DNA of 64,000 bases from Phascolarctobacterium sp. GTDB taxonomy: Bacteria; Bacillota; Negativicutes; Acidaminococcales; Acidaminococcaceae. Both the position numbers and the translations under genes were made by a program. This document shows positions 10,455 to 58,986 of the stretch, piece after piece. The stretch covers positions 25,958 to 89,957 of the forward strand of contig JAFUKD010000024.1 in the NCBI GenBank assembly GCA_017467905.1. The letters run 5' to 3'. The notes beneath the pieces are model-generated. The model was not told where the DNA came from and searched no databases. It saw nothing but the letters and a program-made list of their open reading frames with translations. Position 1 is the first letter of the stretch; each line of letters begins with the position of its first letter.

Positions 10455-10507
10455 TTCACACCATCCTCTACTATTTACTTCAATAATATTAGAAGTTTCG
10501 TACATTT

Positions 10508-24731: not shown

Positions 24732-24798
24732 AGACAACATCTCCAATCAATCATTCATACATAATTTGGGATTACTAAATAAAAAAAGAACCTTCCAA

Positions 24799-26513: not shown

Positions 26514-26679
26514 TTTATTGCACCTCCTAAAAAAATATTCACAATAAGTGCAACAAAACCTACTTCCACCTAAAGTTGTATGCAACATTTGTAAAAAAAA
26601 AGAAAAAGGGACATAGATATCATTCAAAATACCTATGTCCCAAAAGGTGTACTTTTTGTTGTACCTATTTAGTTATTAA

Positions 26680-27660
26680 TCATCCAAAAATGGACTTGAA
26701 AATGCTAGTAATTGTCCCGATGACAGCCCCAGCAACACCACCAAGAATTTTCCCAGGCACGCCCAGAATCTTGCCACCGACTTCACTAGCTACCTCAATG
26801 TAATCGAATACCACATCGACAAAATCCTTGGTAGTTTCCTCACCATAATCATCTTCCTCATCATCGTGTTCCCAATTTTCTTTTTTTGTATTGATTTTAT
26901 CAGCCAATGCCAATCGCTTTTCACGAGGAATGATTTGAACAATGCTATGAAGTAGCTTAGTAAGATTGTAAGGCTTGCATTGATTTTTTCCTTCCTCACA
27001 ATAGCCTGCACAATAACAAATAGGAGTAATATCTAATCCGGTTCCGTCTTTAACTCGTGCTTGAACTGAAGCAGCTTTCCTTTTCAAGTATTGTGTCAGT
27101 ACTTCGTCAGGCTTGTTTGCTTCTTTATGCCAATGATTACCCTTCATGGCTACGTCTGCTTGGTTCAAGCCAATGATGATTCGCTTGCTCGCTTCACTAC
27201 CTAGGCAAGGCACGAGTACTTTGTTGATGAGGTTATAGGTTGTTCCCAAGTCTTTACTGGATGAATCCATGATTACTACCACCAGGTCGATAATAGGTTT
27301 ACCATCTTCCCCAATCTCATTGAGCTTAGCAATAATGTCTCTTGTAATACGCTTGTCCCTTTCAACGCCATCACCCAATCCTGGACTATCCCAGATGGTA
27401 AGGTTATCTAATACGAAATTAGAGATGGTAGTTGTTTCAGGATCTACGCCTGTCCCAACCTTTGCGACGTTCATATCAAACAAAGCATTGATAGTAGAAC
27501 TCTTACCGCTTCCAGTTGCACCAACAAGCATAATGTTAACCTGTTTACTTCGTACTTGAAGCAGTCTTGATAGCTTAGCAGCTTTATCTGCTTCGCTCAA
27601 ATCTGAGTTCATAATGTCTTCTTCCAAAAGTTCGTAGATATTTTTCATTTCTTGTTCCAT
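26680..27660 (-). CDS. P-loop GTPase (YfjP/YeeP-like small GTPase domain) with an acidic linker and a C-terminal glycine-zipper membrane segment
   Basis: G1 is GATGSGKSS, G3 is WDSPGLGDG and G4 is GLNQAD. The C-terminus reads EVGGKILGVPGKILGGVAGAVIGTITSIFKSIFG. Confidence 0.6.
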   Translation of the reverse strand: MEQEMKNIYELLEEDIMNSDLSEADKAAKLSRLLQVRSKQVNIMLVGATGSGKSSTINALFDMNVAKVGTGVDPETTTISNFVLDNLTIWDSPGLGDGVERDKRITRDIIAKLNEIGEDGKPIIDLVVVIMDSSSKDLGTTYNLINKVLVPCLGSEASKRIIIGLNQADVAMKGNHWHKEANKPDEVLTQYLKRKAASVQARVKDGTGLDITPICYCAGYCEEGKNQCKPYNLTKLLHSIVQIIPREKRLALADKINTKKENWEHDDEEDDYGEETTKDFVDVVFDYIEVASEVGGKILGVPGKILGGVAGAVIGTITSIFKSIFG

Positions 27661-29796: not shown

Positions 29797-30216
29797 TTAA
29801 AATGGTTCTTTCATATCCATATCGTTATCTTCTTCAGTAGTTACGTAACTATCAAACTGATTACTGTTGCGTAGATAGAAAACCATAGAATAAGAATCGT
29901 TATAAACAACTATGATTTTTGTCCATTTTTCATTATCAAAATAGTAGTTGTAGGCTACCTCTGGTATAATACCTTCCCAACCTTCAGATAACCCAATGCT
30001 TTTTAATTGGTCGATAGTTTCGCTACCATCCAGCAATGCAACATAGCCATAATCATAATCATCCGTATGAAATTCTGTAAAACTGACTTCATTGTATTCG
30101 TCTGACCAGCTTTTAATTCTGGATAATTCTTCCTTCAGCATTTTTATGATACGATTAGGAACAATACCCATCATTGTAAGCTTGATAATATCCTTGTAGC
30201 ATTTTACTTCTATCAT
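29797..30216 (-). CDS. Hypothetical protein
   Basis: 139-aa ORF. Its start overlaps the upstream stop codon (ATGA) and an AAGGAGG RBS lies inside the upstream gene. Confidence 0.45.
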   Translation of the reverse strand: MIEVKCYKDIIKLTMMGIVPNRIIKMLKEELSRIKSWSDEYNEVSFTEFHTDDYDYGYVALLDGSETIDQLKSIGLSEGWEGIIPEVAYNYYFDNEKWTKIIVVYNDSYSMVFYLRNSNQFDSYVTTEEDNDMDMKEPF

Positions 30217-30935
30217 GCTGCCTCCTTGTTAGCCATTCGTTTTTGACAATCATAGCAAATGGGTTTACCGAATTTGTTTAAAGCATAGTCCAGTACTTTT
30301 TGAGACTTAATTGGTGTATTGCATTGGCAGCATATAGTACCAAATGGTGGCTCGTGGATTTCGGGTGCCTTAGGAGTGTCTACATTAGGTTCATAGTTTC
30401 TGGTCTTGGAAGCTATACTGAATCTTTCCTTACCATCTTTGTCTAGGACTACAAACTTGGTGAATTTATTTTGTGTCTTGTCATAGGTCATATCAGCACC
30501 GACATAGAATTTAGCATAGCTTTTAGGTTTGCCATTATTGCCTATGAAAAATTCGTCATCGTTAAGCTTGAATCTAATATCAGGAGCAGAATAAAGCTCT
30601 CTGCCGATCTTCCAATTAAAGCAAGCACGCTTGAAAGCATCGGAAGCTTCCCCTTTAGTAGGTTCAGTATTACTTGGTACTCCTACATCTTGTTTGGAGA
30701 TCCATTCCTGTTTTTTCTCATCATAGACACTTACTGTACAGAACAGTCTGCCATCTATCACGGTATGTTCTCGTTTCCAGTTCATAGAGCCAAAGCATTC
30801 GTCAAGGATACGCATATCCACTCTGGAATTCTTATATGCAAGCAGTACTGCAAAAGTTCCTTGGTTTGTTTGTTGGAGCTGTGCAATCCGCAATTCCACA
30901 TCAGAAGCAGTTAATAAAGGTATATCTTTTTCCAT
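30213..30935 (-). CDS. Rad52/Sak-like single-strand annealing protein with a C-terminal zinc ribbon
   Basis: ILDECFGSMNWKREH...KQDVGVPSNTEPTKGEASDAFKRACFNWKIGRELYSAP matches the Rad52_Rad22/DUF1071 core. The C-terminus has CCQCN...CYDC. Confidence 0.7.
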   Translation of the reverse strand: MEKDIPLLTASDVELRIAQLQQTNQGTFAVLLAYKNSRVDMRILDECFGSMNWKREHTVIDGRLFCTVSVYDEKKQEWISKQDVGVPSNTEPTKGEASDAFKRACFNWKIGRELYSAPDIRFKLNDDEFFIGNNGKPKSYAKFYVGADMTYDKTQNKFTKFVVLDKDGKERFSIASKTRNYEPNVDTPKAPEIHEPPFGTICCQCNTPIKSQKVLDYALNKFGKPICYDCQKRMANKEAA

Positions 30936-34139: not shown

Positions 34140-34295
34140 TTATGACCAGAATAACCTCCAATAAACCAAGAGTATTAAGCTTTTGAATGTTATCCATAAT
34201 ACTAATAATAAACTAAGTAATAGCAATTCTAGCCTTTTATCCGTTTCACTAAGCATATGCTCCCACCTTTCGTTGTTATATTTGATTTCTGTCAT
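34140..34295 (-). CDS. Possible 51-aa hydrophobic micro-protein translationally coupled to the recombinase stop
   Basis: Own translation gives MTEIKYNNERWEHMLSETDKRLELLLLSLLLVLWITFKSLILLVYWRLFWS. Its ATG overlaps the recombinase TGA (ATGA). Below the track size cut-off. Confidence 0.25.
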   Translation of the reverse strand: MTEIKYNNERWEHMLSETDKRLELLLLSLLLVLWITFKSLILLVYWRLFWS

Positions 34296-35932
34296 ATTTC
34301 GATAACCAATAGCCATTGCTCATCCTCCAGTGTTCCGTTGCATAAAAAAATCCCCCCATCATTTTGGGAGGATTTAGATGTCAGGTATTCTTGAAGCTCT
34401 ATGCCAAACTTCATATAGAGCTTATCTACCTTGTTATTTTTCACGGTTATTCTATCAATCAACAATCTCAATAACAATTTCGTTTGTTCTGGTGGAGCGG
34501 AATCCATCACTGCCTTAAAGTTTGCCAATGATTCCTTTATAAATTCAATATTCAACTCATTGTTGGTAAGGCTATTATTTCCTGCTAATATTTTCTTCTG
34601 TTCTATTAGCTTAGTAGCACTATCATTCAACTCGCTTATCCTTTTATCAAGGGTAGCTTTGTCATATCTGCCATCAATGTATAAGTCTAATAGCCTTTGT
34701 TTACGTTCTTCAATTTCAACTATCTTTGCATCCACGCTATCATACTCACGCTTCCTGCTTTCGATAGATTTGTCTGCTTTTTTCTTAATTCCACATAGTA
34801 TTTCTTGGATAAGCTCAGGACTACTTAAAAACTCTGCTACCTTATCCAATACATATTTCTCTGCTTCGTCAGCACCTACAGAGTTACTTTTACATACGCT
34901 AGCACCTTTGTTTTTGAAGTTGGAACAACAATAGTACCTATATACTCGTTTATTGCCATTCTTCAAATTACTAGTAGACCTACCTATCACCATAGGAGCA
35001 TTGCACACAGGGCAACGCAACAGGCTACTAAGATAGTTCTCGTCATTATGTACTTTCTGCGTAGTAGAACACCTTTCAGAACGAATATTTTGTGCCCTGT
35101 TCCAAACTGCTTCGCTAACAATAGCTTCGTGAACGCCTTTAACGATAATAGGGTTTGGATTCTTCCCTTTTCTACGTTTTTCGCTCCACTTGCGGTACTT
35201 CCCATATCTTACATAACCCTTGTATAGTGGGTTATCGATAATTTCTCTTATGCTATACAAGCTAAACTCTTTACCATGAATAGTTCTATAACCTTCTTTG
35301 TTAAGTTTATTAGCTATAGCCTTAAAGCCTTTACCATTGCAGAACCATTCGTATATTTTCCTGATGATTATCGCTTCTGGCTCATAAATGACTAGGTCAT
35401 TCTTTTTGGGTCTGGTAGCACTCGGAACAACTCGGTAACCCAATGCCTTACTACCGCTATGCAAGCCAAGTCTAGCTCTTTGGTTTAAGCCTAAGCTAAC
35501 ATTTTCAACAATGGTATTGCGTTCTAATTCACCAACCGCAGCGAGCATTTGAACTGCAAACTTACCCATGGGATTAGAGGTATCGAAGTTTTCTGTGAGT
35601 GAGGTGATGGAAACGTTATATTTCTCTAGTCTCTCGAAAATCTCAAGGAAATCCTTGGTATTACGAGAAATGCGATTAATCTTCCACACCACCACTTCGT
35701 CAAACTTACCACTCTCAGCATCTTTAAGAAGCCTCTGTACCTCTGGTCGTTTAGTAATGTTCTTACCACTTATGCCAGCATCTACATATTCACCGACTAC
35801 AGTATAGCCATGCAGTTCACAATATTGGTGGATTTTTTCTTTTTGACCTTCAATGGAATAACCCTTCTCAGCTTGTTCTTCAGTTGATACCCTTGCATAT
35901 AGGGCTACTCGTTTTGGTTTTGATGGATCCAT
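34292..35932 (-). CDS. Large serine recombinase (CcrB-like position)
   Basis: MDPSKPKRVALYARVSTEEQ catalytic N-terminus, a recombinase domain, a zinc-ribbon (CPVCNAPM...YRYYCCSNFKNKGASVC) and a coiled-coil C-terminus. Start set at the internal ATG 4 nt after the upstream stop. Confidence 0.9.
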   Translation of the reverse strand: MDPSKPKRVALYARVSTEEQAEKGYSIEGQKEKIHQYCELHGYTVVGEYVDAGISGKNITKRPEVQRLLKDAESGKFDEVVVWKINRISRNTKDFLEIFERLEKYNVSITSLTENFDTSNPMGKFAVQMLAAVGELERNTIVENVSLGLNQRARLGLHSGSKALGYRVVPSATRPKKNDLVIYEPEAIIIRKIYEWFCNGKGFKAIANKLNKEGYRTIHGKEFSLYSIREIIDNPLYKGYVRYGKYRKWSEKRRKGKNPNPIIVKGVHEAIVSEAVWNRAQNIRSERCSTTQKVHNDENYLSSLLRCPVCNAPMVIGRSTSNLKNGNKRVYRYYCCSNFKNKGASVCKSNSVGADEAEKYVLDKVAEFLSSPELIQEILCGIKKKADKSIESRKREYDSVDAKIVEIEERKQRLLDLYIDGRYDKATLDKRISELNDSATKLIEQKKILAGNNSLTNNELNIEFIKESLANFKAVMDSAPPEQTKLLLRLLIDRITVKNNKVDKLYMKFGIELQEYLTSKSSQNDGGIFLCNGTLEDEQWLLVIEI

Positions 35933-35936
35933 AAAT

Positions 35937-37463
35937 TCACCTACTTTCTTTAATATCAATTTTCATTGTTTGTAACCTTCCATTCTGCTTCACGTTAGGT
36001 ATGTAAACTTCAATAGTCTTAACGAACCTATCCTCGTCTACATATACCGCCTTAATAACACCACGTAGCAGCTTTATCTTTTCTTCGTCAGTTGCTTTTT
36101 CTAACAGCTTTGGTAATAGTTTAAACGCTGCTCTAATTTCTTCTTCGCTATACGCTTGCCTTACTTCACTAAACTGCTTACGATTTAGATCCAGTTCTAC
36201 TTCTTCTATGGCTTCCTGAATAGCATTGTCCTCTTCCAGCAACTGTTCAGTGCTTAGCCTGCCTTCTTCAAAAGCCAATAGCAGTTTATCACGCTTGGCA
36301 TTCAGCTTAGTTATATTACTTTTAAGGCTCTCTATTTTATCTTCCATAGACTTATCAACGGATAATCTTACTTGGACTTCTTCAATTACCTTATTCAGCC
36401 AGATATCCTTACACAGATACTTGTAAAGGAAAGCCAAAACAACTTCATCAGCTTCTTTAGCCTTGACTAAGTTTGGCTTGCAATTGCCAGTTCCCCTATT
36501 ATTGTACTCGTTACAGCTATAGTAATAGTACCGCCTTTCAGTACCATTCTTATTCTTATGGAATACGTGTGCAGGTATCATACCTGTACCACAAGCAGGA
36601 CACTTAACTAGTCCTGAGAGCAAGTAACGGTAATCAACAATTCGTTTACAGTGTGTTTTGGTAGCCAACATTGCTTGAGCCTTTTCCCAAGTTTCAATGC
36701 TTACTATAGGCTCATGAATACCTTGGTAATACTCTCCACAATACTTGACCATTCCTGCATACACCTTACTATCCAATATTCTCTTAATAGACATAATGGA
36801 AAACGGACTACCCTTACTACCTCTATACCCATCAGCATTCAACATTTGAGCAATTGACTTAAAGCCATATCCTTGCAAGTATAAATCAAATACTTTCCTT
36901 ACAGCTTTTGCTTCTCTCGGAACTATTACTAGCTTTTTAGTGCCTTTAGGGTCATCAGTGTCAGGTATGCTATCATACCCAAACAGCTTCCCACCAACTA
37001 CCTTGCCGGCTTTAGCCTTTTTCTTGCTCCCATTAAGTACGTTTTCTATCAAAGCTTCCCTCTGCATTTGGGCAATGCTGCCAAACATCTGGGCAGTAAA
37101 CTTTCCTACAGGGGTATTAAGGTCAAACTTTTCAGTAAAGCTGAATAGCTGTATGTTTTCCCTTTGAAATTCGTCGAAGATAACCAATAAATTAGCAAGC
37201 TTCCTGCTCAACCTGCTTATCATCCAAACGCCTACACTACCAAATAGACCTTCTTTAGCATCATTAAGCATAGCCTGTAAGCCAGGTCTTTCCATAGTAT
37301 ATCCAGAAATACCTGCGTCCTTATAGACCTTGAACACCTTCTTGCCTTGTCGAGCGATTTCGTCTCGAAGCACCTTTTCCTGAGCTTCGAGACTATAACC
37401 GCCTTCTGCTTGCCTAGTGCTACTAACACGCACATAGATAGCTACAAACTTAGATTTATCCAT
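35937..37463 (-). CDS. Large serine recombinase (CcrA-like position)
   Basis: FVAIYVRVSSTRQAEGGYSLEAQ catalytic N-terminus, a zinc-ribbon (CPACGTGM...YYYYSCNEYNNRGTGNC) and a coiled-coil. Confidence 0.9.
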   Translation of the reverse strand: MDKSKFVAIYVRVSSTRQAEGGYSLEAQEKVLRDEIARQGKKVFKVYKDAGISGYTMERPGLQAMLNDAKEGLFGSVGVWMISRLSRKLANLLVIFDEFQRENIQLFSFTEKFDLNTPVGKFTAQMFGSIAQMQREALIENVLNGSKKKAKAGKVVGGKLFGYDSIPDTDDPKGTKKLVIVPREAKAVRKVFDLYLQGYGFKSIAQMLNADGYRGSKGSPFSIMSIKRILDSKVYAGMVKYCGEYYQGIHEPIVSIETWEKAQAMLATKTHCKRIVDYRYLLSGLVKCPACGTGMIPAHVFHKNKNGTERRYYYYSCNEYNNRGTGNCKPNLVKAKEADEVVLAFLYKYLCKDIWLNKVIEEVQVRLSVDKSMEDKIESLKSNITKLNAKRDKLLLAFEEGRLSTEQLLEEDNAIQEAIEEVELDLNRKQFSEVRQAYSEEEIRAAFKLLPKLLEKATDEEKIKLLRGVIKAVYVDEDRFVKTIEVYIPNVKQNGRLQTMKIDIKESR

Positions 37464-37468
37464 GCTAG

Positions 37469-37588
37469 TTAAGCTGCTTCGTCAGAATCCATAACGACTT
37501 CTTCAGCTTCTTGTTGTTCGTATAGGTAGTTAATAATAATTTCTGCCAACAAGTCTACCACTTGTTGATGGTTTTCACTTTTGTCCAT
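37469..37588 (-). CDS. Possible 39-aa acidic micro-protein immediately upstream of the recombinases
   Basis: Own translation gives MDKSENHQQVVDLLAEIIINYLYEQQEAEEVVMDSDEAA. RBS is GAGAGG. Its stop lies 5 nt before the recombinase ATG. Confidence 0.3.
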   Translation of the reverse strand: MDKSENHQQVVDLLAEIIINYLYEQQEAEEVVMDSDEAA

Positions 37589-37678
37589 CTTATTCACCTC
37601 TCGTCTAAAATATCCTTGCCTATTTACAAGGTACATTTTTATGATATGTATTTAAAATTTATTTATTTTCAATTTTGG

Positions 37679-37701
37679 GCAGGAGGCTGTTAGCCCCCTG
37701 C
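37679..37701 (-). promoter_or_regulatory. Intercistronic GC-rich hairpin H1
   Basis: Minus strand reads GCAGGGGGCT AAC AGCCTCCTGC. The single non-Watson-Crick pair is G-U only on the minus strand. Confidence 0.5.
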
Positions 37702-37708
37702 TGGAAGA

Positions 37709-39220
37709 TTAAGCTACTGCTTCAGCATTAGCTTCGTCTGTTTTTCCAAATTTAATATAACGAACCCCATTGCTCTTGTTACTAGAATCAACATTTATGG
37801 AGTAACCCATCCCACGAAAAGCTGGCATCAGCGTTTTAAGCTTATTACTCAGTTCTTGTGAACTACTCACCCATTTTTCGCTGTTCATATTGATATGATT
37901 GGTTCGAGCGATTTCCATCAGCTTTTTGTAAAGTTCTGTAGAATTCACCTTGCAGGGGAATTTGTTTAGAGACTCTAAATAAAGCATTAATGCATATGCT
38001 AACGGGTCTTGTTGTACCAGGTCTTCGAATACGAAGCCCTTGTTTCTCAAAAAAATTTCGATAAATTCTTTGTCACTACCAAATACAATAGTGGCTATGG
38101 CTCTACCCCAGGTAAAGAAGTCAATCAAGCGAGGAGATTCTACGTACTCCAAGTCGTCGTATATTTGCATCGCTTGACTAAGCACAGAAAAAATTTGTCC
38201 TAATATATAGGGTAGCTTTTCGTCAAACTCTTTTTCAATAGCCTTGGCTGAAACATACTTTTTGTTCAGCGTGGGCAATTCAAATCCTACAATGCGGTCA
38301 CGAAGATCCAGGCGTGCATTTTCAATGGCGATGCCATTAAGTAACACGCAGTTCTTGAAGCTAACTACGCTTGCATCAAAATTAGAATACTTGGTGCGTT
38401 TTAGCATACTACCACCAGTTGAAGCTTGGCAGAGCAAATCACTTACGCCTTTAGGTAAGTCAGTAATATTGTCTACCGCCATAACGTAGTGAGTTGAAAG
38501 AGCTACGCCAAGGTCTTCTTTGGTATCTGGAGAATTTAGAGTTTCATGGGTAACAGGATCTACAATTTTCTGTATGAGAGAGGTAAGGAAGGTCTTACCA
38601 GAACCCTGCTCACCTTGCAACAAAATTACTGCTTTAGGAATGTCTTGAATAAACCAAGCAACCAAGCATACCGTTAGCAGCTTCTTAGAATCATCATCCA
38701 TGTTAAGGAACGGAGAAAGCAGGTCATACAGGTTATGTCCCTTCTTTATTTTGGGCATTACCTGTTCTCCCATCAAGCTATTGCTCATAAATGCACAAGC
38801 TTTTTGGGATACCTCGATTTCATCTTCGAAATAAGTATCTTCAGCAGTTACTACTACATACTGACGAGCTTCATTGTTTAAATTGTAGACAATCTCGTCT
38901 CCAACCTTAGCAATTCTGCTGTAGATGGTTTTCTTGTTCTTGCTAGTAAGTGCATGGGCAAGAACATAATCAACGATTCTCTTGATAAATTTGTTTTCGT
39001 ATAGTTTATCTTCTACTGCTATGCACTCCATCAAGATTCTGTACTTGAAGATTTCGCTCTTAATGGCATCAGTGCGCACTTCATTGTTTCTGTCCATCCA
39101 GGTTATGTATTCTAAACCGGTGTTAGTTCCAACGAATAGTTCACTGCCGTCAATAATAGCTTTCACAGTATTGAAAATCTCTTCTAGTACTTCTTCGGCT
39201 TTACCAGTTTTTTTAGCCAT
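37709..39220 (-). CDS. P-loop NTPase, SF3/VirE-like helicase candidate (the intact member of the paralogue family)
   Basis: 503 aa. Walker A is LLQGEQGSGKTF, Walker-B-like is YVMAVDNITDL and a motif-C-like segment is FKNCVLLNGIA. It shares N- and C-terminal blocks with the three following ORFs. Confidence 0.55.
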   Translation of the reverse strand: MAKKTGKAEEVLEEIFNTVKAIIDGSELFVGTNTGLEYITWMDRNNEVRTDAIKSEIFKYRILMECIAVEDKLYENKFIKRIVDYVLAHALTSKNKKTIYSRIAKVGDEIVYNLNNEARQYVVVTAEDTYFEDEIEVSQKACAFMSNSLMGEQVMPKIKKGHNLYDLLSPFLNMDDDSKKLLTVCLVAWFIQDIPKAVILLQGEQGSGKTFLTSLIQKIVDPVTHETLNSPDTKEDLGVALSTHYVMAVDNITDLPKGVSDLLCQASTGGSMLKRTKYSNFDASVVSFKNCVLLNGIAIENARLDLRDRIVGFELPTLNKKYVSAKAIEKEFDEKLPYILGQIFSVLSQAMQIYDDLEYVESPRLIDFFTWGRAIATIVFGSDKEFIEIFLRNKGFVFEDLVQQDPLAYALMLYLESLNKFPCKVNSTELYKKLMEIARTNHINMNSEKWVSSSQELSNKLKTLMPAFRGMGYSINVDSSNKSNGVRYIKFGKTDEANAEAVA

Positions 39221-39244
39221 GTTTTTCCTCCTTTCTTTATTCTG

Positions 39245-39269
39245 GCAGGCGGAGCAGAGCCCCGCCCGC
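39245..39269 (-). promoter_or_regulatory. Intercistronic GC-rich hairpin H2
   Basis: Minus strand reads GCGGGCGGGGC TCT GCTCCGCCTGC, with two G-U pairs only in minus-strand RNA. Confidence 0.5.
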
Positions 39270-39293
39270 TATTTAAATTATTAAGCAACCACT

Positions 39294-40526
39294 TCAAGCA
39301 ACATTGGTTCTAGAGCTTTGTCCAGAAACAATTACCCTACTAGGAATCGTGGTCATAACATTATTACCTTTAACACCTTTTTTCAGAGCATATGCTTTTA
39401 AAAAGGTGTGGTCGTCACCAAAAAGTACTTTGGAGATGGCTCTACCCAAATGAATGTACTCGGCAAGCTCACCGTAGTCCTCACTAAAACCAACAGTTTC
39501 TTTAATATATAAAGCCTTGCGTAAAACCTCAAAAATTTTATACAACAGGTATGGCTTAATAGCATTAAGTTCAGCCTTTACATCTTCCAGAACATTAGTG
39601 GTATAGTCGAAGCCCAGATTAGGGTTAACAGAAATCAACATATCAGCAAAGCCAACGCCGAGATCATCATGTTCTATACAACTAATGCTATAAGCGTTAG
39701 ACAGGTCATTGTTCAAGTAATAGTAATCTTCTAAAACTGCCAGTTCTGTACATGCTTCGATGTTTTTGAGATCTTTTACTGTGTGACCACATTGGAAGTA
39801 TCTTTCACTACAAGCTTGGTCATCATCCATATCAGCAAAGGACGGCAAATACAAGCAGTCTTCCTTCAACGGGTCAATCAGAGATTGTAATGCAAAGTTA
39901 AATGCTTGCTTTACATCGTCTCTATCGCTATCGATATATAGAATAGGTTTTCGGATGCAAGGTGCAAACATAGTAATTATGGTAACTGCCAAAGCGACTG
40001 CGTCAACGTAGTTAAGATGTAGCAATCTTTGCAATGCATCAACCAAATCTATTTCGTCATCAGGTACCGGCAATACTTGTGGTGCAGCATAAGGACTATT
40101 GCAAAAAGCAATATCTTTATCTGCCAACGCTTCCATAGGAATGATTTTTGCTTCGCAATCATCGGAGCCATCAATAAGAGCCATAACGTTTTTACCATCG
40201 AAGTTGTAATAAATAACGCCTTCAGAAACGGCAATACGAGAAACTACAGTCTTTTCTTCATGATGAGCTTCAATATATTTAGCAAAAGCATTTACAGCAG
40301 TAGCCAAATACTTAGGATTTTCTTTCATCAGTCTTTCGTTGGTAGTAACAATCCAATTCTTGACTGCAACACTGTCGTAGGCTACGGTTACCAGATTATC
40401 GCTACCATCTTTAAATGTCATGTAATAGTTACCACTATTTTTAGCAACAATTCCTTTAAAGTCAGAAACTTTAAGAGTAATGGTCTTAACTTCTCGTTGT
40501 TCAATTTTCAAAGTTTGTTCATTCAT
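39294..40526 (-). CDS. Paralogue of the P-loop protein with a degenerate Walker A (pseudo-NTPase)
   Basis: 410 aa. Shared blocks are SRIAVSEGVIYYNF, QVLPVPDDEIDLVDAL, FAPCIRKPILYI, LIDPLK and KPYLLYKIFEVLRKAL. The Walker A position reads DSDRDDVK. Confidence 0.55.
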   Translation of the reverse strand: MNEQTLKIEQREVKTITLKVSDFKGIVAKNSGNYYMTFKDGSDNLVTVAYDSVAVKNWIVTTNERLMKENPKYLATAVNAFAKYIEAHHEEKTVVSRIAVSEGVIYYNFDGKNVMALIDGSDDCEAKIIPMEALADKDIAFCNSPYAAPQVLPVPDDEIDLVDALQRLLHLNYVDAVALAVTIITMFAPCIRKPILYIDSDRDDVKQAFNFALQSLIDPLKEDCLYLPSFADMDDDQACSERYFQCGHTVKDLKNIEACTELAVLEDYYYLNNDLSNAYSISCIEHDDLGVGFADMLISVNPNLGFDYTTNVLEDVKAELNAIKPYLLYKIFEVLRKALYIKETVGFSEDYGELAEYIHLGRAISKVLFGDDHTFLKAYALKKGVKGNNVMTTIPSRVIVSGQSSRTNVA

Positions 40527-40551
40527 ATTGTTTTCTTCCTTTCCTTATTAA

Positions 40552-40578
40552 GCAGAGTGGAGGCGAACCCCACCCTGC
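40552..40578 (-). promoter_or_regulatory. Intercistronic GC-rich hairpin H3
   Basis: Minus strand reads GCAGGGTGGGG TTCG CCTCCACTCTGC. Confidence 0.45.
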
Positions 40579-40586
40579 ATTTTTTA

Positions 40587-41816
40587 TTACGCAACACTAT
40601 ATAGGGCTTTTAATTCAAGACTATCAGCCATATCAAAGATTTCGTCTAATTCCGCGCTCTCCACCTTATGGTCATAGAAATCCATGAAAAGCATAACCGG
40701 AATCAATTCATCCGCCAAAGGCTTGCGCAATGCAAATACTTTGTCGAAAGCTTCAGCTTTACCAAAGATGACAGCCGCAATCGCTCTAGCCCATTGGACG
40801 AATTCAGTAAGGTCACCAAAGTCCTCTACCGCTATTGTTTCTTTTACCACCATCGCCTTGCTTAGAACCTCAAAGATTGCATTCAAGATATCTGGTCGTT
40901 CTTTTTCTACAACTTTTTTAGCTTCAGCCAATGGTTCGTAGTTGCCAATCAGTTTAGATTTGATGGTAACAACAATTGAAGCTAGCTTAGCAGTTACTGA
41001 ATCCAAGCCTATATCATTCACCACGAAGCAGTTGCGCAAGTTGCCCATATCAGAACCACAAGGTGTCAAGTTTTCTACATTCATGTCGAATACATCTTTA
41101 ACATCTTTGAATGTATTAGCAACGTGCAAGTAACGTTTGGCAAAAGCCCATTCTTCGCTTCTATCATGAGAATAACAGAACTCTTCTTCTTTGATTGGAT
41201 CAACGAGAGCTTGAAGCACGTAATTACATACTGCCTTGGCACCATCGTCCTTGCAAGTTATGTTTAAAACAGGCTTGAAGATTTGGGGAACGAACATCGC
41301 TACCAAAACAATCGCCATCAAAATGCTATCAAGTCGGTCTAAGCCTAACAAATAGCCAATTTTCTCAGGCAAATCTACTTTATTACCTTGCTTGGGTAAA
41401 TCCTGGACATCCATTAATCGGTCATTAACAAAAGCAAAAAGCTCATTTCTTAAGCTACCTGCTTCAACCAGACTAGTACGACCAGGTTCGACAACCAAAA
41501 CGTTGCCATCCATAAAGTTGTAGAAAATCTTGTCACCTTCTTGAGCAATACGAGACATAACGTCTTTTCCCATACCCTCATAACCAGCAACATCTGCCAA
41601 CTTATGCAATGCGCATCTTACAAGTTCAGGATTTTGTGCAACAAGTTGCGGGTTCTTTTCTTCCATCCAAGCTACAAAACGGTCGTCATAAAGAGGGATA
41701 TTAATGAAGCCCTCTTTTTCATTCTCGTAACTAATGCAATATTCGCCGATGTTGCAGCCGATGAACAATTTAGCATCGGCAGGAACATTTGCAATAACAG
41801 AATCTACTTTTTTCAT
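40587..41816 (-). CDS. Paralogue of the P-loop protein with a degenerate Walker A (pseudo-NTPase)
   Basis: 409 aa. Shared blocks are SRIAQEGDKIFYNF, FVPQIFKPVLNI, LVDPIK and RPDILNAIFEVLSKAM. The Walker A position reads TCKDDGAK. Confidence 0.55.
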   Translation of the reverse strand: MKKVDSVIANVPADAKLFIGCNIGEYCISYENEKEGFINIPLYDDRFVAWMEEKNPQLVAQNPELVRCALHKLADVAGYEGMGKDVMSRIAQEGDKIFYNFMDGNVLVVEPGRTSLVEAGSLRNELFAFVNDRLMDVQDLPKQGNKVDLPEKIGYLLGLDRLDSILMAIVLVAMFVPQIFKPVLNITCKDDGAKAVCNYVLQALVDPIKEEEFCYSHDRSEEWAFAKRYLHVANTFKDVKDVFDMNVENLTPCGSDMGNLRNCFVVNDIGLDSVTAKLASIVVTIKSKLIGNYEPLAEAKKVVEKERPDILNAIFEVLSKAMVVKETIAVEDFGDLTEFVQWARAIAAVIFGKAEAFDKVFALRKPLADELIPVMLFMDFYDHKVESAELDEIFDMADSLELKALYSVA

Positions 41817-41847
41817 ATTTCTCCTCCTACTAATTTAGAAATTTAGT

Positions 41848-41890
41848 GGCTTTATGGGAGGTAGAGACCATGCTCTACCTCATAAAAGCC
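41848..41890 (-). promoter_or_regulatory. Intercistronic long hairpin H4
   Basis: GGCTTTATGGGAGGTAGAG ACCATG CTCTACCTCATAAAAGCC, a stem of about 18 bp with bulges. Confidence 0.45.
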
Positions 41891-41904
41891 GTTATACATT
41901 ATTA

Positions 41905-42549
41905 TTAAGCTGCTGCTTTCTTGATTCTATCAGCAAGGTACATACCAAACTCCCAAGCTTCGCTTATAGGAGTCTGTTCAGGATCAAAACTGTTCCAGTC
42001 AAGGCAAAGTTTGCCGTCTTTTTCTTTCAAGCGAATAGTACCGAATGCATCAGCAATTTCGTCGGTGTAAGCAGCGACGAGTGTTTCCCATCCGCCTGCA
42101 TAAACGCTTCGAATCATTTCAAGATATTCTTCAGAGCCAATTTTGTAATCTTCTACGAGTAAGCCAGTTGGACGATCATCGTACCAGTAAGAACCATCTT
42201 CAGTAGCTTCAAACAACAATACTACCAATTGAACTCTGTCGGCAATTAACGCCACCGGACCAATAGTGAAGCCATACCAAACATCAGCTTTCAAGTTTGA
42301 CGGCATATAGTAATCAACGAAACCCACAAACTGAGAGGGGTTCTTTTTATGCCAATCCCAGAAATAGGAGTCCTTGGCTCTAAAAACGGAGCCACAGGAT
42401 TCGGTTTCAACAGCTTCAGCGTTACCTTCAGCAATAGCCTCAACGCTTGCGATTTTAGTTGTTTCTTCAAATGGTTTGGTTTCGATGCCACTGATTGCAT
42501 TGTTACCTTCAGTGACGATTTTAATCAAAATTTCTTTGTTTTCTTTCAT
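41905..42549 (-). CDS. Hypothetical protein embedded in the paralogue array
   Basis: 214-aa ORF with an AGGAGG RBS. No motif recognised. Confidence 0.45.
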   Translation of the reverse strand: MKENKEILIKIVTEGNNAISGIETKPFEETTKIASVEAIAEGNAEAVETESCGSVFRAKDSYFWDWHKKNPSQFVGFVDYYMPSNLKADVWYGFTIGPVALIADRVQLVVLLFEATEDGSYWYDDRPTGLLVEDYKIGSEEYLEMIRSVYAGGWETLVAAYTDEIADAFGTIRLKEKDGKLCLDWNSFDPEQTPISEAWEFGMYLADRIKKAAA

Positions 42550-42586
42550 TATTTGTTACCTCCTGATTGTTTCGAATTTTAATTGA

Positions 42587-42622
42587 AGTTGGTGCTGGAA
42601 CTGAGTAAGCACCAGCACCACT
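42587..42622 (-). promoter_or_regulatory. Intercistronic hairpin H5
   Basis: AGTTGGTGCTGG ...loop... CCAGCACCACT. Confidence 0.45.
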
Positions 42623-42634
42623 TAGTACATTTAG

Positions 42635-43819
42635 TTAAGCAATCTTAGTATTAAGAAGCTTTTCACGTTTAGTAGCGATTAGCTCAAGGTAATTTGCCTT
42701 CCAAGCATTAACATCGCGACCAAACGGTTTGCGTTCTACATATGCATTTGTAAAAACGTCCTTACTACCAAACAGAACAAAGGATATTGCTGTTGCCCAT
42801 TGCATGAAGTCAGTAAGCACACCTGCATATTCTACCTCTATGCTGTCTTTAATCGCCATCGCTTCGCTCAAAACAGTAAAGATCGCTTGCAGAATGTATG
42901 GGCGGTCTTCTTCAAATGAAGCAATCGCTTCAGCCAATTCTTCACGATTACTAAGTTCAACTTTCGGGCTAACTGTGAGCACCTTCGCTAACAAGTCAAT
43001 ATCGAAGTTCTTCATGGCTAAGTCAAAGGTAACCATAGCATTGCGCATATTACCCATGTCGCCACCATTCAGACCTTCATTTCCCAAGTTGTGCCAGAGT
43101 AACCAATTTAGGTCTTTAATATTGTAGCCAAAGTGCAAATAACGTTTCGCCAACACAGCATGGTCGCTTTCAGCGTTAAAGTACAGTTCTTCACCTTTTA
43201 CAGGATCAACTACGTATTCAAGTACGTATTTTGCCCAAGCAAGGGTATCTACGCTTTCACTATTGACGTAAAGCACCGGCTTAACGATATGGGGTACGAA
43301 TGCTGCAACCAACCAAGTGGACAAAAGCACTGTATCTTCAATGCTCAAGCCAAAAAGCTCACCAACTTTGTCAACAAGGTCGATTTGCTTTTCGCTTCTT
43401 GGTAAAACTTGATTGCCCATATGTTTTGATTTTACAAATGCAAAGCCTTCATCGAATAAGTCTTGCATGTCAATCACGCTGAGCTTATTAGGTTCAACAA
43501 CTGCTACGTTGGTATTATCCAAGTTGTAAAAGATTTTGCTGTCTTCATACATTCGGGATACAACGTATTTTGCATCGGCATTATCCATCCAGCCTTGAAT
43601 GAATGCTTCAACAACTTCGTCAGCCTCTTCGTCTTCGTAAAGAGAAGGATTGCTTCTTTTAATGGCATTAGCCAAATCAACCTCATCAATTGAGCCAACT
43701 TCGTAAATGCCGTCAGCATTAACGCAACTAGCATAATAAAATCCAGTATTGTAACCAGCGAATACATCGCAATAATCAGGAACGGTAATGGATTCGATTT
43801 TTTCGTTTAAATTAGTCAT
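42635..43819 (-). CDS. Paralogue of the P-loop protein with a degenerate Walker A (pseudo-NTPase), first gene of the array
   Basis: 394 aa. Shared blocks are SRMYEDSKIFYNL, QVLPRSEKQIDLVDKV, FVPHIVKPVLYV, VVDPVK and RPYILQAIFTVLSEAM. The Walker A position reads NSESVDTL. Confidence 0.55.
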   Translation of the reverse strand: MTNLNEKIESITVPDYCDVFAGYNTGFYYASCVNADGIYEVGSIDEVDLANAIKRSNPSLYEDEEADEVVEAFIQGWMDNADAKYVVSRMYEDSKIFYNLDNTNVAVVEPNKLSVIDMQDLFDEGFAFVKSKHMGNQVLPRSEKQIDLVDKVGELFGLSIEDTVLLSTWLVAAFVPHIVKPVLYVNSESVDTLAWAKYVLEYVVDPVKGEELYFNAESDHAVLAKRYLHFGYNIKDLNWLLWHNLGNEGLNGGDMGNMRNAMVTFDLAMKNFDIDLLAKVLTVSPKVELSNREELAEAIASFEEDRPYILQAIFTVLSEAMAIKDSIEVEYAGVLTDFMQWATAISFVLFGSKDVFTNAYVERKPFGRDVNAWKANYLELIATKREKLLNTKIA

Positions 43820-43859
43820 TTAAAATTCCTCCTACTATGTAATGTGTCTTGCAACACCT

Positions 43860-44265
43860 GACAATAAAAAGGAACCTTCACCTTTGCTCAAAAGCTATTG
43901 AAGATGGCATTACAGCCCACATAGCTTCCAAGCATCGGCTTGGTCTACTGTATTCCAATTGTCAAGGTTCAAGTGGTTTTTAACTGCTTCACAGGGATTA
44001 CCCTTGCGTTCTTAGGAGGCATTCCTCGCAGCCAACTCACAATTCGTGCTCGTTCACTTGAAGATTGCCACCCTCGAAGCGTGGGGTAAGGTTTTGCGGT
44101 ACGCACTTTAAGGCACAACTTTTTTCCCTGTGGGGTTCAACGTTGTGCCCTCCCCATTGGCGCTGCAGCCGCTACAAAAGGCTGCTCAACGAGGAGGTGT
44201 CTACCGCTGGCGCTAGCAAAGTAAGAAGCGGCTAGCGCCACATCTTTTGCAAGCTTAGGAACTTT
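43860..44265. ncRNA. Candidate large structured RNA or structured DNA site (class unknown)
   Basis: No ORF of 60 aa or more in any frame between 43820 and 44556. G+C is locally elevated: 36/60 counted in line 44161, against 23/60 in coding line 43741. Many perfect nested stems are present: GAACCTT/AAGGTTC, AGCTAT/ATAGCT, CCAAGC/GCTTGG, GGCACAAC/GTTGTGCC, GCAGCC/GGCTGC and GGCGCTAGC/GCTAGCGCC. Confidence 0.35.
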
Positions 44266-44270
44266 CGTTC

Positions 44271-44460
44271 ATTGTAACAAATTGTAAAACAAGTCCGCGG
44301 TACCTGTTCTTCAATCGTCTCTTGTATGATATCACCGTAACTGTATTGTGTCAATGGATTTTCGTCCACTATTAGAGTACAAGTTTTTGCAAAAAAAAGG
44401 GCTCTTTTTCTGTACCTTAATTTCGAGAATTGTGTAACATTTCTTCGAAAAATTGTAAAC
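44271..44460. repeat. Iteron-like ATTGTAA(A/C) repeats in the AT-rich segment next to the structured region
   Basis: ATTGTAACAA at 44271 and ATTGTAAAAC at 44281 are 10 bp apart. AATTGTGTAAC is at 44428 and AATTGTAAAC at 44451. Confidence 0.3.
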
Positions 44461-44556
44461 TACAGAAATTGAGCCTTGCTTAATCCCATATATTAAGTTT
44501 TCTTACCCTTCAAGCAACGATTATTGTTTACTTTCCTCGCTAGATGAAGTACTTTG

Positions 44557-45853: not shown

Positions 45854-45880
45854 AACGCTCCGTTAGTTATGATACTTCTG
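45854..45880 (-). repeat. rlmH-proximal direct repeat (candidate attR)
   Basis: AACGCTCCGTTAGTTATGATACTT is identical to 10570-10593. It covers the rlmH stop codon (45863-45865) and its last four codons. Confidence 0.65.
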
Positions 45881-46342
45881 ACCGCTACTAATCTTAAATG
45901 CTCTGTAAATCTGCTCAATCAAAAGCAGTCTAATCATTTGATGAGTAAAGGTCATTTTAGAAAAGCTCAAGGCAAAATCTGCACGCTTGCGCAAAGCATC
46001 CGTATAACCAAAGGCACCGCCAATGACAAAAGTTATATGACTATGTCCGCTGAGAGCAAGATTATCAATCTTACTTGCCAGCTCCGGTGAAGATAACTGC
46101 TTGCCAATTACGTCCAGTAAAATCACATAGGAATTTTCCGGAATAATCGCTAGAAGCCTATTAGTTTCCTTCGCCAGTACTTGCTCCTTTTCTGCAGGCG
46201 CAGGGTTATCAGGCATTTTTTCTTCATTGATGGCTACGGTCTCCAATTTACAGAAAGGAGTAAGCCTTTTGGTAAATTCGTCAATACCAGCAGTCAGGTA
46301 TTTTTCTTTAATCTTTCCTACACACGCAATGGTTATCTTCAC
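45863..46342 (-). CDS. rlmH: 23S rRNA (pseudouridine1915-N3)-methyltransferase RlmH
   Basis: 159 aa, SPOUT family. Contains MKITIACVGKIKEKYL...LSSPELA...HITFVIGGAFG...LSFSKMTFTHQM.R..L.EQIYRAF. Confidence 0.9.
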   Translation of the reverse strand: MKITIACVGKIKEKYLTAGIDEFTKRLTPFCKLETVAINEEKMPDNPAPAEKEQVLAKETNRLLAIIPENSYVILLDVIGKQLSSPELASKIDNLALSGHSHITFVIGGAFGYTDALRKRADFALSFSKMTFTHQMIRLLLIEQIYRAFKISSGQKYHN

Positions 46343-58897: not shown

Positions 58898-58986
58898 TGG
58901 CGGAGATGGTGGGATTCGAACCCACGGTACCTTGCGGTACAACTGATTTCGAGTCAGGCGCGTTATGACCACTTCGCTACATCTCC
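58898..58986 (-). tRNA. tRNA-Ser (anticodon CGA), class II with a long variable arm and encoded CCA
   Basis: Minus strand reads GGAGATGTAGCGAAGTGGTCATAACGCGCCTGACTCGAAATCAGTTGTACCGCAAGGTACCGTGGGTTCGAATCCCACCATCTCCGCCA. It has a 7-bp acceptor stem, the anticodon loop CTCGAAA and a GGTTCGAATCC T-loop. Confidence 0.85.

Follow-up and report, generated by a model that had tools for sequence, protein, structure and literature searches.

A candidate ~500-nt structured leader at the head of the helicase/recombinase operon of an SCC-like island in Phascolarctobacterium

What kind of element is the hairpin-dense stretch without genes that heads an operon for helicase-like proteins and large serine recombinases? 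The question is raised by positions 43820-44556 of a 64-kb Phascolarctobacterium window, i.e., the whole stretch of DNA analyzed here, for which a preliminary description offered two readings: a large structured non-coding RNA or 5' leader of the minus-strand operon, or a replication origin or single-stranded DNA (ssDNA) structure with iteron-like repeats. Its basic observations were borne out. The region contains no ORF of at least 60 aa (the longest has 56 aa), the G+C counts given for two 60-nt lines are exact (36/60 in the line starting at 44161, 23/60 in that starting at 43741), and all stems named there lie at the expected positions: GAACCTT at 43872 with AAGGTTC at 43964, AGCTAT at 43893 with ATAGCT at 43921, CCAAGC at 43928 with GCTTGG at 43938, GGCACAAC at 44112 with GTTGTGCC at 44142, GCAGCC at 44165 with GGCTGC at 44180, and TGGCGCTAGC at 44208 with GCTAGCGCCA at 44231. 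G+C content is 49% in 43860-44265 and 34% in 44271-44460, compared with 41.6% for the whole window.

A G+C content above that of the neighbors, together with a gene call that extends 81 codons into the region in the related contig L009, would suit a decayed protein-coding gene from a G+C-richer donor, with stems arising by chance. This reading is effectively refuted, and we regard it as exceedingly improbable: every frame carries 9-20 stop codons, six-frame translation gave no Pfam match, substitutions between homologues are even over codon phases (24/18/20 and 23/24/22), indels measure 1, 2 and 10 nt, and compensatory changes preserve the helices of a fold with a z-score of -6.6. Decay of a coding sequence had been raised in the preliminary description itself; the homologues differ by substitutions and indels that are non-coding in pattern.

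The structure of the region belongs to the minus strand, which is the operon strand. The stems had earlier been taken as uninformative in this respect, a view now superseded, since the minus-strand helices contain many G-U pairs and the strand can be assigned from them. The 451-nt core has a minimum free energy (MFE) of -169.4 kcal/mol on the minus strand (z = -6.6 against dinucleotide shuffles) and of -141.7 kcal/mol on the plus strand (z = -2.4). When 41-47 kb was scanned with a sliding window, strong structure confined to the minus strand appeared in a single run of consecutive windows, 43850-44225 (z of -2.4 to -4.4). The sense fold is better by 24-59 kcal/mol in 7/7 distinct large leader variants, including those of L013 and L063, and consensus folds of the homologues gave sense versus antisense energies of -131/-104, -29/-16 and -23/-8 kcal/mol.

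The operon led by this region (34292..43819, minus strand) was delineated from ORFs, paralogy, helicase fold and NCBIfam matches. Its products are proteins of 394, 214, 409 and 410 aa, a Cch-like helicase of 503 aa and two large serine recombinases (genes at 35937-37463 and 34292-35959); it also contains a small ORF. The 394-, 409- and 410-aa proteins are Walker-A-less paralogues of the 503-aa protein, the gene of which (37709-39220) lies just upstream of the recombinase genes. The AlphaFold model of the helicase (pLDDT 82.5) found its best PDB match in the SCCmec type IV Cch, 5dgk (E 7.5e-10, TM 0.45; ~10% identical in sequence), with SF3 helicases and the SaPI5 primase-helicase ranking next; the Cch match came from this fold search, a PDB sequence search with the helicase profile having returned P-loop noise only. 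For the recombinases, the best NCBIfam matches were CcrB (402 and 259 bits) and CcrC, scores so far under the equivalog cut-off of 900 that the proteins are homologues, not equivalogs. The 394-, 214-, 409-, 410- and 347-aa proteins belong to no family in Pfam, PHROGs or NCBIfam; the last of these, encoded upstream of the region, has no recognizable domain, and its structure model, built from two sequences, was unusable (pLDDT 36). No relaxase was found in the operon, and searches of neighboring proteins against Pfam, PHROGs and NCBIfam revealed no recognizable primase in the island. Rad52-like and DUF932-type genes are also present in the island.

On balance, and with moderate confidence, we read the region as four parts, namely the upstream gene's terminator, a strong promoter, a ~500-nt leader folded in three domains and the ribosome-binding site of the gene that opens the operon. 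Along the minus strand, the 3' untranslated tail of the 347-aa gene (44476..44556; the stop codon ends at 44557), taken from the ORF map and conserved with L009, is followed by the intrinsic terminator of that gene (44389..44475), recognized by its fold, its inverted repeat and its conservation in L009. The terminator consists of an imperfect long hairpin (44475-44400; -28.7 kcal/mol, z = -4.6) and CUUUUUUUUGC at 44399-44389; the near-palindrome TTCGAGAA...TTCTTCGAA forms the tip of the hairpin, which also contains ATTGTAA-like words at 44428 and 44452. Next comes a sigma-70 promoter (44326..44354) composed of TTGACA, a 17-nt spacer and TG-n-TATCAT, with 11/12 matches and an extended -10 TG. 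It is the best sigma-70 site within 33.5-46 kb (12.5 kb), and equivalent promoters lie 500-600 nt 5' of the first ORF in all variants (L009, L015 with 11/12 matches, L001 and L022). Judged from the position of this promoter, transcription would start near 44319.

The leader predicted from this start opens with a variable 5' segment (44242..44319) conserved with L009 only, in which UUACAAU words stand in tandem (44271-44278 and 44281-44288 on the plus strand) and AAAGUUCCU is a possible anti-Shine-Dalgarno (anti-SD) sequence far upstream; in the MFE structure of the window, the Shine-Dalgarno (SD) pairs with this segment. Both L013 and L063 have unrelated sequence in its place and share a different subfamily of the upstream gene. 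The following helix, P1 (44208..44240), was read from the sequence and from four variants of the leader type found in the window (type A); it comprises ten perfectly matched, G+C-rich base pairs capped by a U-rich loop of 13 nt, and its stem is the same in these variants apart from a single C-G pair that has become U-G. On the sense strand, the 5' arm by itself forms a small hairpin that, with UUCUUACUUU behind it, resembles a terminator. Read in antisense, the complete stem precedes a U tract. Hairpins analogous to P1 are present in leader types B and C, with which it is unalignable. In the rest of the 5' domain (44096..44207), folded with RNAalifold on four variants, a closing helix GCGGUA/UACCGC encloses two arms: one is CCUCCUCGUUG...CAAUGGGGAGG, which has a GCAGCC/GGCUGC hairpin inside it, and the other is GGCACAAC/GUUGUGCC.

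The central domain (43998..44089) is a long irregular hairpin with a consensus fold of -22.9 kcal/mol in sense versus -7.8 kcal/mol in antisense orientation, and is partly rearranged in L063. The 3' domain (43850..43976), common to type A and the type B leader of L001 and marked by covariation, is built of a 12-bp closing helix, GNACCUUGACAAU/AUUGUCAGGUNU, in which 43966-43955 pair with 43863-43852 and which lengthens a 14-bp imperfect stem-loop, and of a 3-bp helix; on its 3' side lies an invariant pyrimidine block, UUCCUU, a candidate anti-SD. The outermost stem of the preliminary description, GAACCTT/AAGGTTC, is not kept in relatives and was rejected as the conserved helix, the conserved closing helix being CCUUGACAAU/AUUGUCAGG. 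The leader ends in the translation-initiation region of the first gene (43820..43849), read from the sequence, with a small GUGU/ACAC hairpin and the SD AGGAGG at 43828-43833 in front of the ATG (43819-43817), and it is conserved right up to this ATG whichever gene follows (394 aa or 226 aa). A helix between anti-SD and SD is possible in 4/4 variants (93.8% of cells paired); since the SD is fixed, it shows one-sided changes only, and in L001, the SD is predicted to be accessible.

Compensatory changes in homologues, a check proposed in the preliminary description, were indeed present. The relatives are Phascolarctobacterium-type metagenome contigs that provide four to five distinct sequences, so that covariation is statistically low-powered. 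The 3' domain consensus comprises 32 pairs with 93.8% of cells paired (37-49% in slid controls) and 9 compensatory pairs versus 1-2 in slid controls, a number as high in 0/500 shuffles, a control that is liberal for related sequences. The 5' domain including P1 (RNAalifold, four variants) comprises 45 pairs with 94.4% of cells paired, and 5 compensatory pairs versus 0-1 in slid controls. A pairwise consensus fold of L015 and L022 was set aside as over-fitted to two sequences, and a pseudoknot between the P1 and P4 loops was dropped, as no one register pairs across all variants.

Covariance models built from the two domains delimit the reach of the structure. The 5' domain model (R1) scored 120-176 bits in all type A loci and otherwise gave a weak P1-like match in L015; the 3' domain model (R2) recovered type A and L001 at 104-133 bits, with no match in type C, L063 or more distant islands. 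Since types B and C are unalignable with type A outside the 3' domain and each model reaches only some types, neither one family spanning all types nor a single common mechanism can be claimed. Between the window and L013, the leader core is 82% identical and the flanking proteins 30% and 41%; leader conservation exceeds that of the neighboring genes. No additional distinct large type A, B or C leader emerged when genomes, metagenomes and viral sequences were scanned with the helicase profile; four pattern scans of viral contigs yielded only L070, which is identical to L013, and an exact look-up of the 409-aa protein returned the identical island only. The distribution is very narrow, amounting to a handful of metagenome contigs.

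The two parts of the preliminary proposal fared differently. Its first alternative, a large structured non-coding RNA or leader of the minus-strand operon, is supported, the support coming from the strand-specific folding, the strong promoter, the continuity with the ribosome-binding site, the compensatory changes and the non-coding substitution and indel patterns. The second, in which the region is the replication origin of the island or an ssDNA structure (ssi-, sso- or oriT-like) bound by the neighboring helicase-family proteins, is not supported, and we consider it highly unlikely. Dense inverted repeats do adjoin helicase-family genes, Rad52-like and DUF932-type genes are typical of elements with an ssDNA stage, and G-T wobble is tolerated in DNA hairpins, so that minus-strand ssDNA could in principle share the fold. 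There is, however, no iteron array: words of 8-12 nt recur in 2-3 copies at irregular spacing (148, 23 and 171 nt). Four ATTGTAA(A/C)-type repeats had been reported, three of which are exact (44271, 44281 and 44452) and the fourth (44428) an interrupted copy; ATTGTAAM occurs at chance frequency in the whole window (10 observed versus 9.4 expected), and the words at 44428 and 44452, like the near-palindrome, lie within the terminator hairpin and are therefore not iterons. Moreover, the structured core is the most G+C-rich part rather than an A+T-rich unwinding element, the region is bracketed by a strong promoter and an SD, and no relaxase was found in the operon.

Position also speaks against an origin. 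For the Cch2 helicase of SCCmec and the Rep helicase of SaPIs, the origin lies immediately 3' of the helicase gene, and SaPI and SCCmec pattern-2 origins consist of a defined direct-repeat array bound by the helicase (PMC7581432). The region resembles the latter in having intergenic direct and inverted repeats in a replication module, but it lies upstream of the whole operon, at its head and 4.6 kb upstream of the helicase gene, is G+C-rich and promoter-bracketed, and has no array. The analogy with SCCmec and SaPIs would place the origin at 37464-37708, an A+T-rich segment directly downstream of the helicase gene and ~6 kb from the region. The search for an origin accordingly moves to this segment.

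To relate the leader to known RNAs, it was compared with Rfam 15 (4227 models). The covariance scan proposed in the preliminary description found no family for the region: at the gathering threshold, the whole window contained a tRNA-Ser only, which was also the only hit of a tRNA/tmRNA scan of the window (at 58.9 kb), and at E up to 10 the region gave three chance-level matches of 11-15 bits. Types B and C likewise gave only chance-level Rfam matches, and no match to the region turned up when phage and plasmid collections were searched with blastn. A T-box riboswitch was rejected, the model RF00230 giving no match to the region at E up to 10. As regards the T-box antiterminator, with its GAGGG helix and a UGGN bulge for the tRNA 3' end, the sequence GAGGGUGGCAAUCUUC is invariant in four variants, with UGGC paired to UGCC in three and bulged only in L063; the genes downstream of the leader are not aminoacyl-tRNA or amino-acid genes. 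The leader is a candidate new large structured RNA without an Rfam counterpart. Like ROOL, GOLLD, OLE, HEARO and raiA, it is several hundred nucleotides long, multi-domain, richer in G+C than its surroundings and located in a Firmicute mobile element; unlike these RNAs, it is continuous with an mRNA rather than free-standing and has a very narrow distribution, and their Rfam models gave no match even at E up to 10.

The likeness to large functional non-coding RNAs in size and three-domain complexity, with no known cis-regulatory family matched, is what an independent or processed structured RNA acting in trans would offer, for example as a partner of the Walker-A-less paralogues or of the 214-aa protein, or as a replication primer or mark like ColE1 RNA II. 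The RNA always lies directly 5' of the unusual paralogue or 214-aa genes, and the island encodes a helicase and no recognizable primase. Within the central domain, the 23-nt block CUUCGAGGGUGGCAAUCUUCAAG is unchanged in 4/4 type A variants, including where its pairing partner has disappeared, a pattern suggestive of a binding site. Against an RNA acting in trans, neither a terminator nor an obvious processing site precedes the first ORF, conservation runs through the SD to the ATG, and the 3' domain is replaced in L063 with the operon still there. The 394-aa protein is 91% identical between islands with unalignable leaders, which argues against specific recognition by this protein. We regard an RNA acting in trans as rather unlikely.

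The distribution of leader types points to an exchangeable module made up of the leader and the gene upstream, as expected of a regulator and its target. Type A leaders pair with a co-directional gene family (347/364/296 aa), types B and C with a divergent one (203/230/214 aa), and the genes downstream are 91-99% identical between islands in which leader and upstream gene have been swapped. Such modular exchange between otherwise near-identical islands would also be compatible with control by a countertranscript, in which an antisense RNA arising within or just beyond the leader ends at P1, RNA-RNA pairing decides termination or translation, and types A, B and C represent incompatibility or immunity groups. 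Although the types are unalignable, the antisense strand of each carries P1 as a G+C-rich hairpin with a U tract behind it; in types B and C, the promoters of the leader and of a divergent regulator-like gene stand back-to-back. The study of the pLS20 leader names countertranscripts as another mechanism by which long leaders in operons of mobile elements may act (PMC13401043). On the other hand, no antisense promoter-like site was detected inside the leaders of the window, L001, L015 and L022, the single antisense site, TTGTAA-16-AATAAT (9/12), being weak and located in the first ORF; the P1 loop of 12-16 nt is long for an intrinsic terminator, and structure is selected on the sense strand rather than on both.

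The leaders of pCF10 (prgQ/Anti-Q) and the rep leaders of pT181 and pIP501 are countertranscript-regulated. With these, the leader shares length and structure 5' of replication or transfer genes, an antisense terminator-like hairpin, a divergent regulator gene (types B and C) and modular, fast-diverging specificity; it differs in having no detected antisense promoter and no attenuator terminator before the first gene, and in being 2-3 times longer than the pT181 or pIP501 leaders. Taken as an account of this locus, we hold countertranscript control to be fairly improbable.

The reading we favor, if by a modest degree, is that ~44319-43820 (minus strand) forms a ~500-nt cis-regulatory 5' leader of the helicase/recombinase operon mRNA, and that this leader probably controls the operon. 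Judging from promoter, SD and sequence continuity, leader and operon would be co-transcribed. Transcription would proceed from the promoter at 44354-44326, 3' of the terminator of the 347-aa gene; the leader would fold into a 5' domain made of P1 and a junction with several arms, a long hairpin in the center and, 3' of it, a 'zipped' stem-loop. Meeting no canonical terminator, the transcript would then reach the ribosome-binding site of the first gene. In this way, the leader would gate operon expression and, with it, replication and excision of the island.

Two putative checkpoints can be proposed for such a leader from its sequence. The first would be a weak terminator or pause site formed by the 5' arm of P1 and the U-rich loop: sense-strand terminator-like sites in the leaders are confined to P1, in two unalignable types. 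The hairpin within P1 has 3-6 bp and is weak, and the segment that would compete with it is located 3' of the U tract, a geometry unusual for an attenuator. At the second, UUCCUU beside the 3' domain would pair with the SD, so that the folding state of this domain could set translation of the first gene. No canonical intrinsic terminator was found just 5' of the SD in seven leaders by a tool scan and a relaxed scan, and classical 3'-end attenuation is thus not evident.

The closest parallel to a cis-regulatory leader of this kind is the conjugation operon of pLS20, headed by a 456-nt leader with the zipper-type attenuator cATT (PMC13401043). At ~500 nt from the predicted start near 44319 to the ATG at 43819, the present leader is of the pLS20-type length; both measure 450-500 nt, head a long mobile-element operon in Firmicutes, and have a strong regulated promoter beside a regulator gene and a sequence that diverges fast with the architecture kept. 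The 3' domain may also correspond to the long imperfect stem-loop of pLS20, which is 'zipped' by pairing of its flanking segments and ends near the SD of the first gene, but its downstream flank does not serve as an arm of a terminator. In contrast to pLS20, no intrinsic terminator stands immediately 5' of the SD, the genes that follow do not include ConAn antitermination genes, and two extra large domains (5' and central) are present; the two leaders resemble each other neither in sequence nor by covariance model, and the present one resides in an integrative SCC-like island instead of a conjugative plasmid.

A bolder version of leader control, which we put forward as speculative and of low probability, is that the leader belongs to a new class of large sensor RNAs with three domains, akin to a riboswitch or T-box, whose binding of a ligand would decide on expression of the island helicase and recombinases, and hence on replication and excision of the island. 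Its ligand might be a cellular ligand, a tRNA or the upstream protein, possibly sensed via CUUCGAGGGUGGCAAUCUUCAAG and P1. The activator of the SCCmec replication and excision genes is stated to be unknown (PMC7581432), and a sensor RNA, if true, would be the first defined trigger for mobilizing SCC-type islands. The strong promoter and the folded ~500-nt leader constitute a candidate control element in an SCC-related island.

The element that hosts the operon is a 35-kb island in the 3' end of rlmH. Its layout resembles SCCmec, the carrier of methicillin resistance in staphylococci, in two adjoining large serine recombinases with a Cch-like helicase just upstream, and, together with other SCC elements and the Enterococcus cassette chromosome, in insertion at the rlmH 3' end with a duplicated core, which is GAAGTATCATAACTAA in the present island. 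It differs from SCCmec in its host, a diderm Firmicute (Phascolarctobacterium, Negativicutes). To our knowledge, and judging from PMC7581432, no counterpart of the three Walker-A-less paralogues or of the long leader is described for SCCmec. The searched literature contained no report of rlmH-targeting Ccr/Cch-type islands in gut Negativicutes, for which the present locus provides evidence. The att core GAAGTATCATAACTAA at 45863-45878 overlaps the rlmH stop codon, its far copy, AAAGTATCATAACTAA, lies at 10579-10594, and the flank of this far copy corresponds to the sequence that follows rlmH in L001.

No ORF of at least 60 aa occurs between positions 43820 and 44556, as had been claimed in the preliminary description. 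The G+C contrast reported for this region was also reproduced (36/60 in the line starting at 44161 against 23/60 in that starting at 43741), and all of the listed stems were found at their expected coordinates. The G+C content amounts to 49% in 43860-44265, 34% in 44271-44460 and 41.6% in the window overall. The 451-nt core has a folding energy of -169.4 kcal/mol on the minus strand (z = -6.6 against dinucleotide shuffles) and of -141.7 kcal/mol on the plus strand (z = -2.4). A sliding scan of 41-47 kb revealed 43850-44225 as the sole series of adjoining windows strongly structured on the minus strand alone, the remaining peaks coming from short hairpins between genes, with scores on both strands. 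The structure in 43820-44556 is beyond chance and strand-specific.

The anatomy of the region was traced along the minus strand. Upstream, the 347-aa gene stops at 44557 and is followed by its intrinsic terminator, a long imperfect hairpin at 44475-44400 (z -4.6) and then CUUUUUUUUGC at 44399-44389. A strong promoter match, TTGACA-17-TG-n-TATCAT (11/12 with an extended -10), is located at 44354-44326 and is the top sigma-70 match of 12.5 kb; transcription is predicted to start near 44319. Between this start and the G+C-rich hairpin P1 (44240-44208) lies a 5' segment of about 78 nt with tandem UUACAAU words. P1 opens a 5' domain reaching down to 44096, followed by a central hairpin domain (44089-43998), a 3' domain (43976-43850), a short hairpin, the Shine-Dalgarno (SD) sequence AGGAGG (43833-43828) and the ATG of a 394-aa gene at 43819. 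Down to the SD and ATG, conservation is unbroken irrespective of the gene that follows. We infer that the RNA is the cis-acting 5' leader of the operon mRNA.

The operon belongs to a 35-kb island (10595-45862) whose insertion site is the 3' end of rlmH (45863-46342). The att core GAAGTATCATAACTAA at 45863-45878 overlaps the rlmH stop and recurs as a direct repeat with one mismatch (15/16) at the far end, 10579-10594; sequence beyond this far copy corresponds to the sequence after rlmH in a related contig. A third, partial core copy, CAGAAGTATCAC, was noted at about 10513-10525. This arrangement is typical of SCC-type cassettes, the class of the staphylococcal methicillin-resistance cassette SCCmec. 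The 394-, 214-, 409- and 410-aa operon proteins matched no Pfam, PHROG or NCBIfam family; the other products are a 503-aa P-loop protein, a small ORF and two large serine recombinases whose top NCBIfam matches, under the equivalog cut-offs, are CcrB and CcrC. The top PDB match of the 503-aa protein model (pLDDT 82.5) is the SCCmec Cch helicase 5dgk (E 7.5e-10), followed by SF3 helicases (NrS-1, D5/E5) and the SaPI5 primase-helicase. The 394-, 409- and 410-aa proteins (42635-43819, 40587-41816 and 39294-40526, all minus strand) are paralogues of this helicase at 24-29% identity, lack its GEQGSGKT Walker A motif, and vary from zero to three copies across related islands; they may serve the helicase as inactive subunits or as loaders. 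Together, the rlmH insertion, the CcrB/CcrC-like recombinases and the Cch-like helicase indicate an SCC-like island in a Negativicute, here a Phascolarctobacterium-type genome, for which no report was found in the literature.

The preliminary description had left open whether the region is a structured RNA or a replication origin, citing four ATTGTAA(A/C)-type repeats and a near-palindrome. Three exact copies of the repeat are indeed present in the region, but they do not form an iteron-like array: the word has 10 copies across the window, with 9.4 expected, and no iteron or phased repeat array was found in the region. Two ATTGTAA-like words lie within the terminator hairpin 44475-44400, and the near-palindrome TTCGAGAA...TTCTTCGAA, although present, is the tip of that hairpin and no iteron. 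With a G+C-rich core, a promoter and an SD on either side, and a repeat part that is a terminator, the region was rejected as an origin. SCCmec pattern-2 elements and SaPIs have their origin immediately downstream of the helicase gene, where it is bound via direct repeats (PMC7581432); by analogy with SCCmec Cch2 and SaPIs, it would be expected here in 37464-37708, an A+T-rich spacer from the helicase gene to the first recombinase gene (PMC7581432). This spacer contains two hairpins, GCAGGGGGCU...GCCUCCUGC and CCUUG...CAAGG, together with a conserved small ORF that every related island has as a gene call of 39-43 aa.

Protein look-ups identified related rlmH islands in gut metagenome contigs. 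In every such island with paralogue or 214-aa genes, a gap of 630-830 bp heads the operon, and in these gaps the sense strand folds better by 24-59 kcal/mol. The leaders fall into three types: A (the window, L009 (= L011, L012), L013 (= L014, L070) and L063), B (L001-L008) and C (L015 (= L033) and L022 (= L023)). L063 keeps the 5' and central domains and carries a different 3' domain, while type B and C leaders gave no blastn alignment with type A. The window and L013 share 82% identity over the type-A core but just 30% and 41% in the flanking proteins; conversely, the downstream proteins of the window and L001 are 91-99% identical, yet their leaders are unalignable. Type A accompanies a co-directional upstream 347/364/296-aa family, and types B and C a divergent 203/230/214-aa family with back-to-back promoters. 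As leader type tracks the upstream gene and not the downstream one, the upstream gene and leader behave as a single exchangeable module. The divergent layout of types B and C is the classical repressor/operon switch arrangement. In L001 (5194-5291) and L022 (2290-2387), the leader promoter lies about 40 bp from that of the divergent 203-230-aa gene, back-to-back; the gene product faintly matches an ArgR-like winged helix (E 0.026).

The three domains were supported by consensus folding of the type-A leaders. Across four sequences, the 5' domain has 45 pairs with 94.4% of cells paired, compared with 27-51% for slid partners, and 5 compensatory pairs against 0-1. The 32 pairs of the 3' domain, evaluated in three type-A sequences plus the type-B L001, were 93.8% paired (37-49% in slid controls) with 9 compensatory pairs against 1-2, and none of 500 shuffles reached the observed score. 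Consensus energies favoured the sense strand in every block (sense/antisense -131/-104, -55/-48, -29/-16 and -23/-8 kcal/mol). Coming from so few sequences, these covariation and energy figures are supportive, short of conclusive. A coding function was ruled out by substitutions spread evenly over codon phases (24/18/20 and 23/24/22), indels of 1, 2 and 10 nt, 9-20 stops in each frame and the lack of any Pfam family match in all six frames. The strand-specific conserved fold, promoter match, compensatory pairs and conservation through SD and ATG favour a structured leader RNA. Even with permissive E-values, no Rfam family matched any of the three leader types, and the region is a candidate new structured leader RNA from an undescribed SCC-like island branch.

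Two candidate control points can be proposed. The first would be a weak terminator or pause site inside P1. The leaders of the window, L009 and L001 each show a single terminator-like site on the sense strand, a small hairpin formed by the 5' arm of P1 with the U-rich loop of P1 behind it. The unalignable types A, B and C all have a perfect stem of 9-10 bp that comes after an A tract and closes a U-rich loop of 12-16 nt. On the antisense strand, P1 reads as a hairpin and U tract and could therefore terminate a countertranscript, although no antisense promoter was found. The second candidate point is the anti-SD block UUCCUU, which types A and B share unchanged and which is situated on the 3' side of the 3' domain. 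An 8-bp UUCCUU:SD helix is possible in 4/4 variants, the only changes being C/U and A/G, opposite G and U. Since UUCCUU can pair with the SD, translation of the first gene could depend on how the 3' domain is folded. Strong minus-strand hairpins with no distinct U tract also occur between cistrons of the operon at 41830-41890 (after the 214-aa gene) and 42590-42625 (after the 394-aa gene); they might act as partial terminators or stabilise the mRNA, and would be relevant were the leader to confer antitermination.

Functionally, the closest precedent is the leader of the pLS20 conjugation operon, which is 456 nt long and contains a zipper-type attenuator, a long imperfect stem that pairing of its flanks extends further (PMC13401043). 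The 3' domain described here has a similar look, that of an extended long stem; however, no terminator, the defining trait of such attenuators, precedes the SD, and the leader was therefore not classed among them. GAGGGUGGC superficially resembles the T-box antiterminator motif; the T-box model gave no match, nor did the large free-standing RNAs ROOL, GOLLD, OLE, HEARO and raiA. The leader is a candidate for the long regulatory leaders of mobile-element operons, real, complex and unmatched in Rfam, but rare and backed by few sequences. It bears on how SCC-type islands get switched on.

Several further features were recorded. The L013-identical leader region also occurs in an rlmH island filed in IMG/VR as viral (L070 / L170, IMGVR_UViG_3300022661_003655), with no phage genes in the part examined. 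A tRNA-Ser (anticodon CGA; 58898-58986, minus strand) is the window's only Rfam or ARAGORN match, and just outside the island's far end lies a 196-aa ORF (9915-10505, minus strand) that contains a ribonuclease domain of the barnase type (PF00545, E 4e-20). Island genes at 25905-26627, 26680-27660 and 30213-30935 encode a small resolvase-type serine recombinase, an MMR_HSR1/AIG1-type GTPase and a weakly matched Rad52/22-like protein, the last recurring in related islands alongside DUF932 and S6-like small proteins. The island's minus-strand cargo includes two outer-membrane proteins, as would fit a diderm Firmicute host: one of 2910 aa whose C-terminus carries an autotransporter beta-domain (13347-22079) and a TonB-dependent receptor of 883 aa with a Plug domain (22095-24746).
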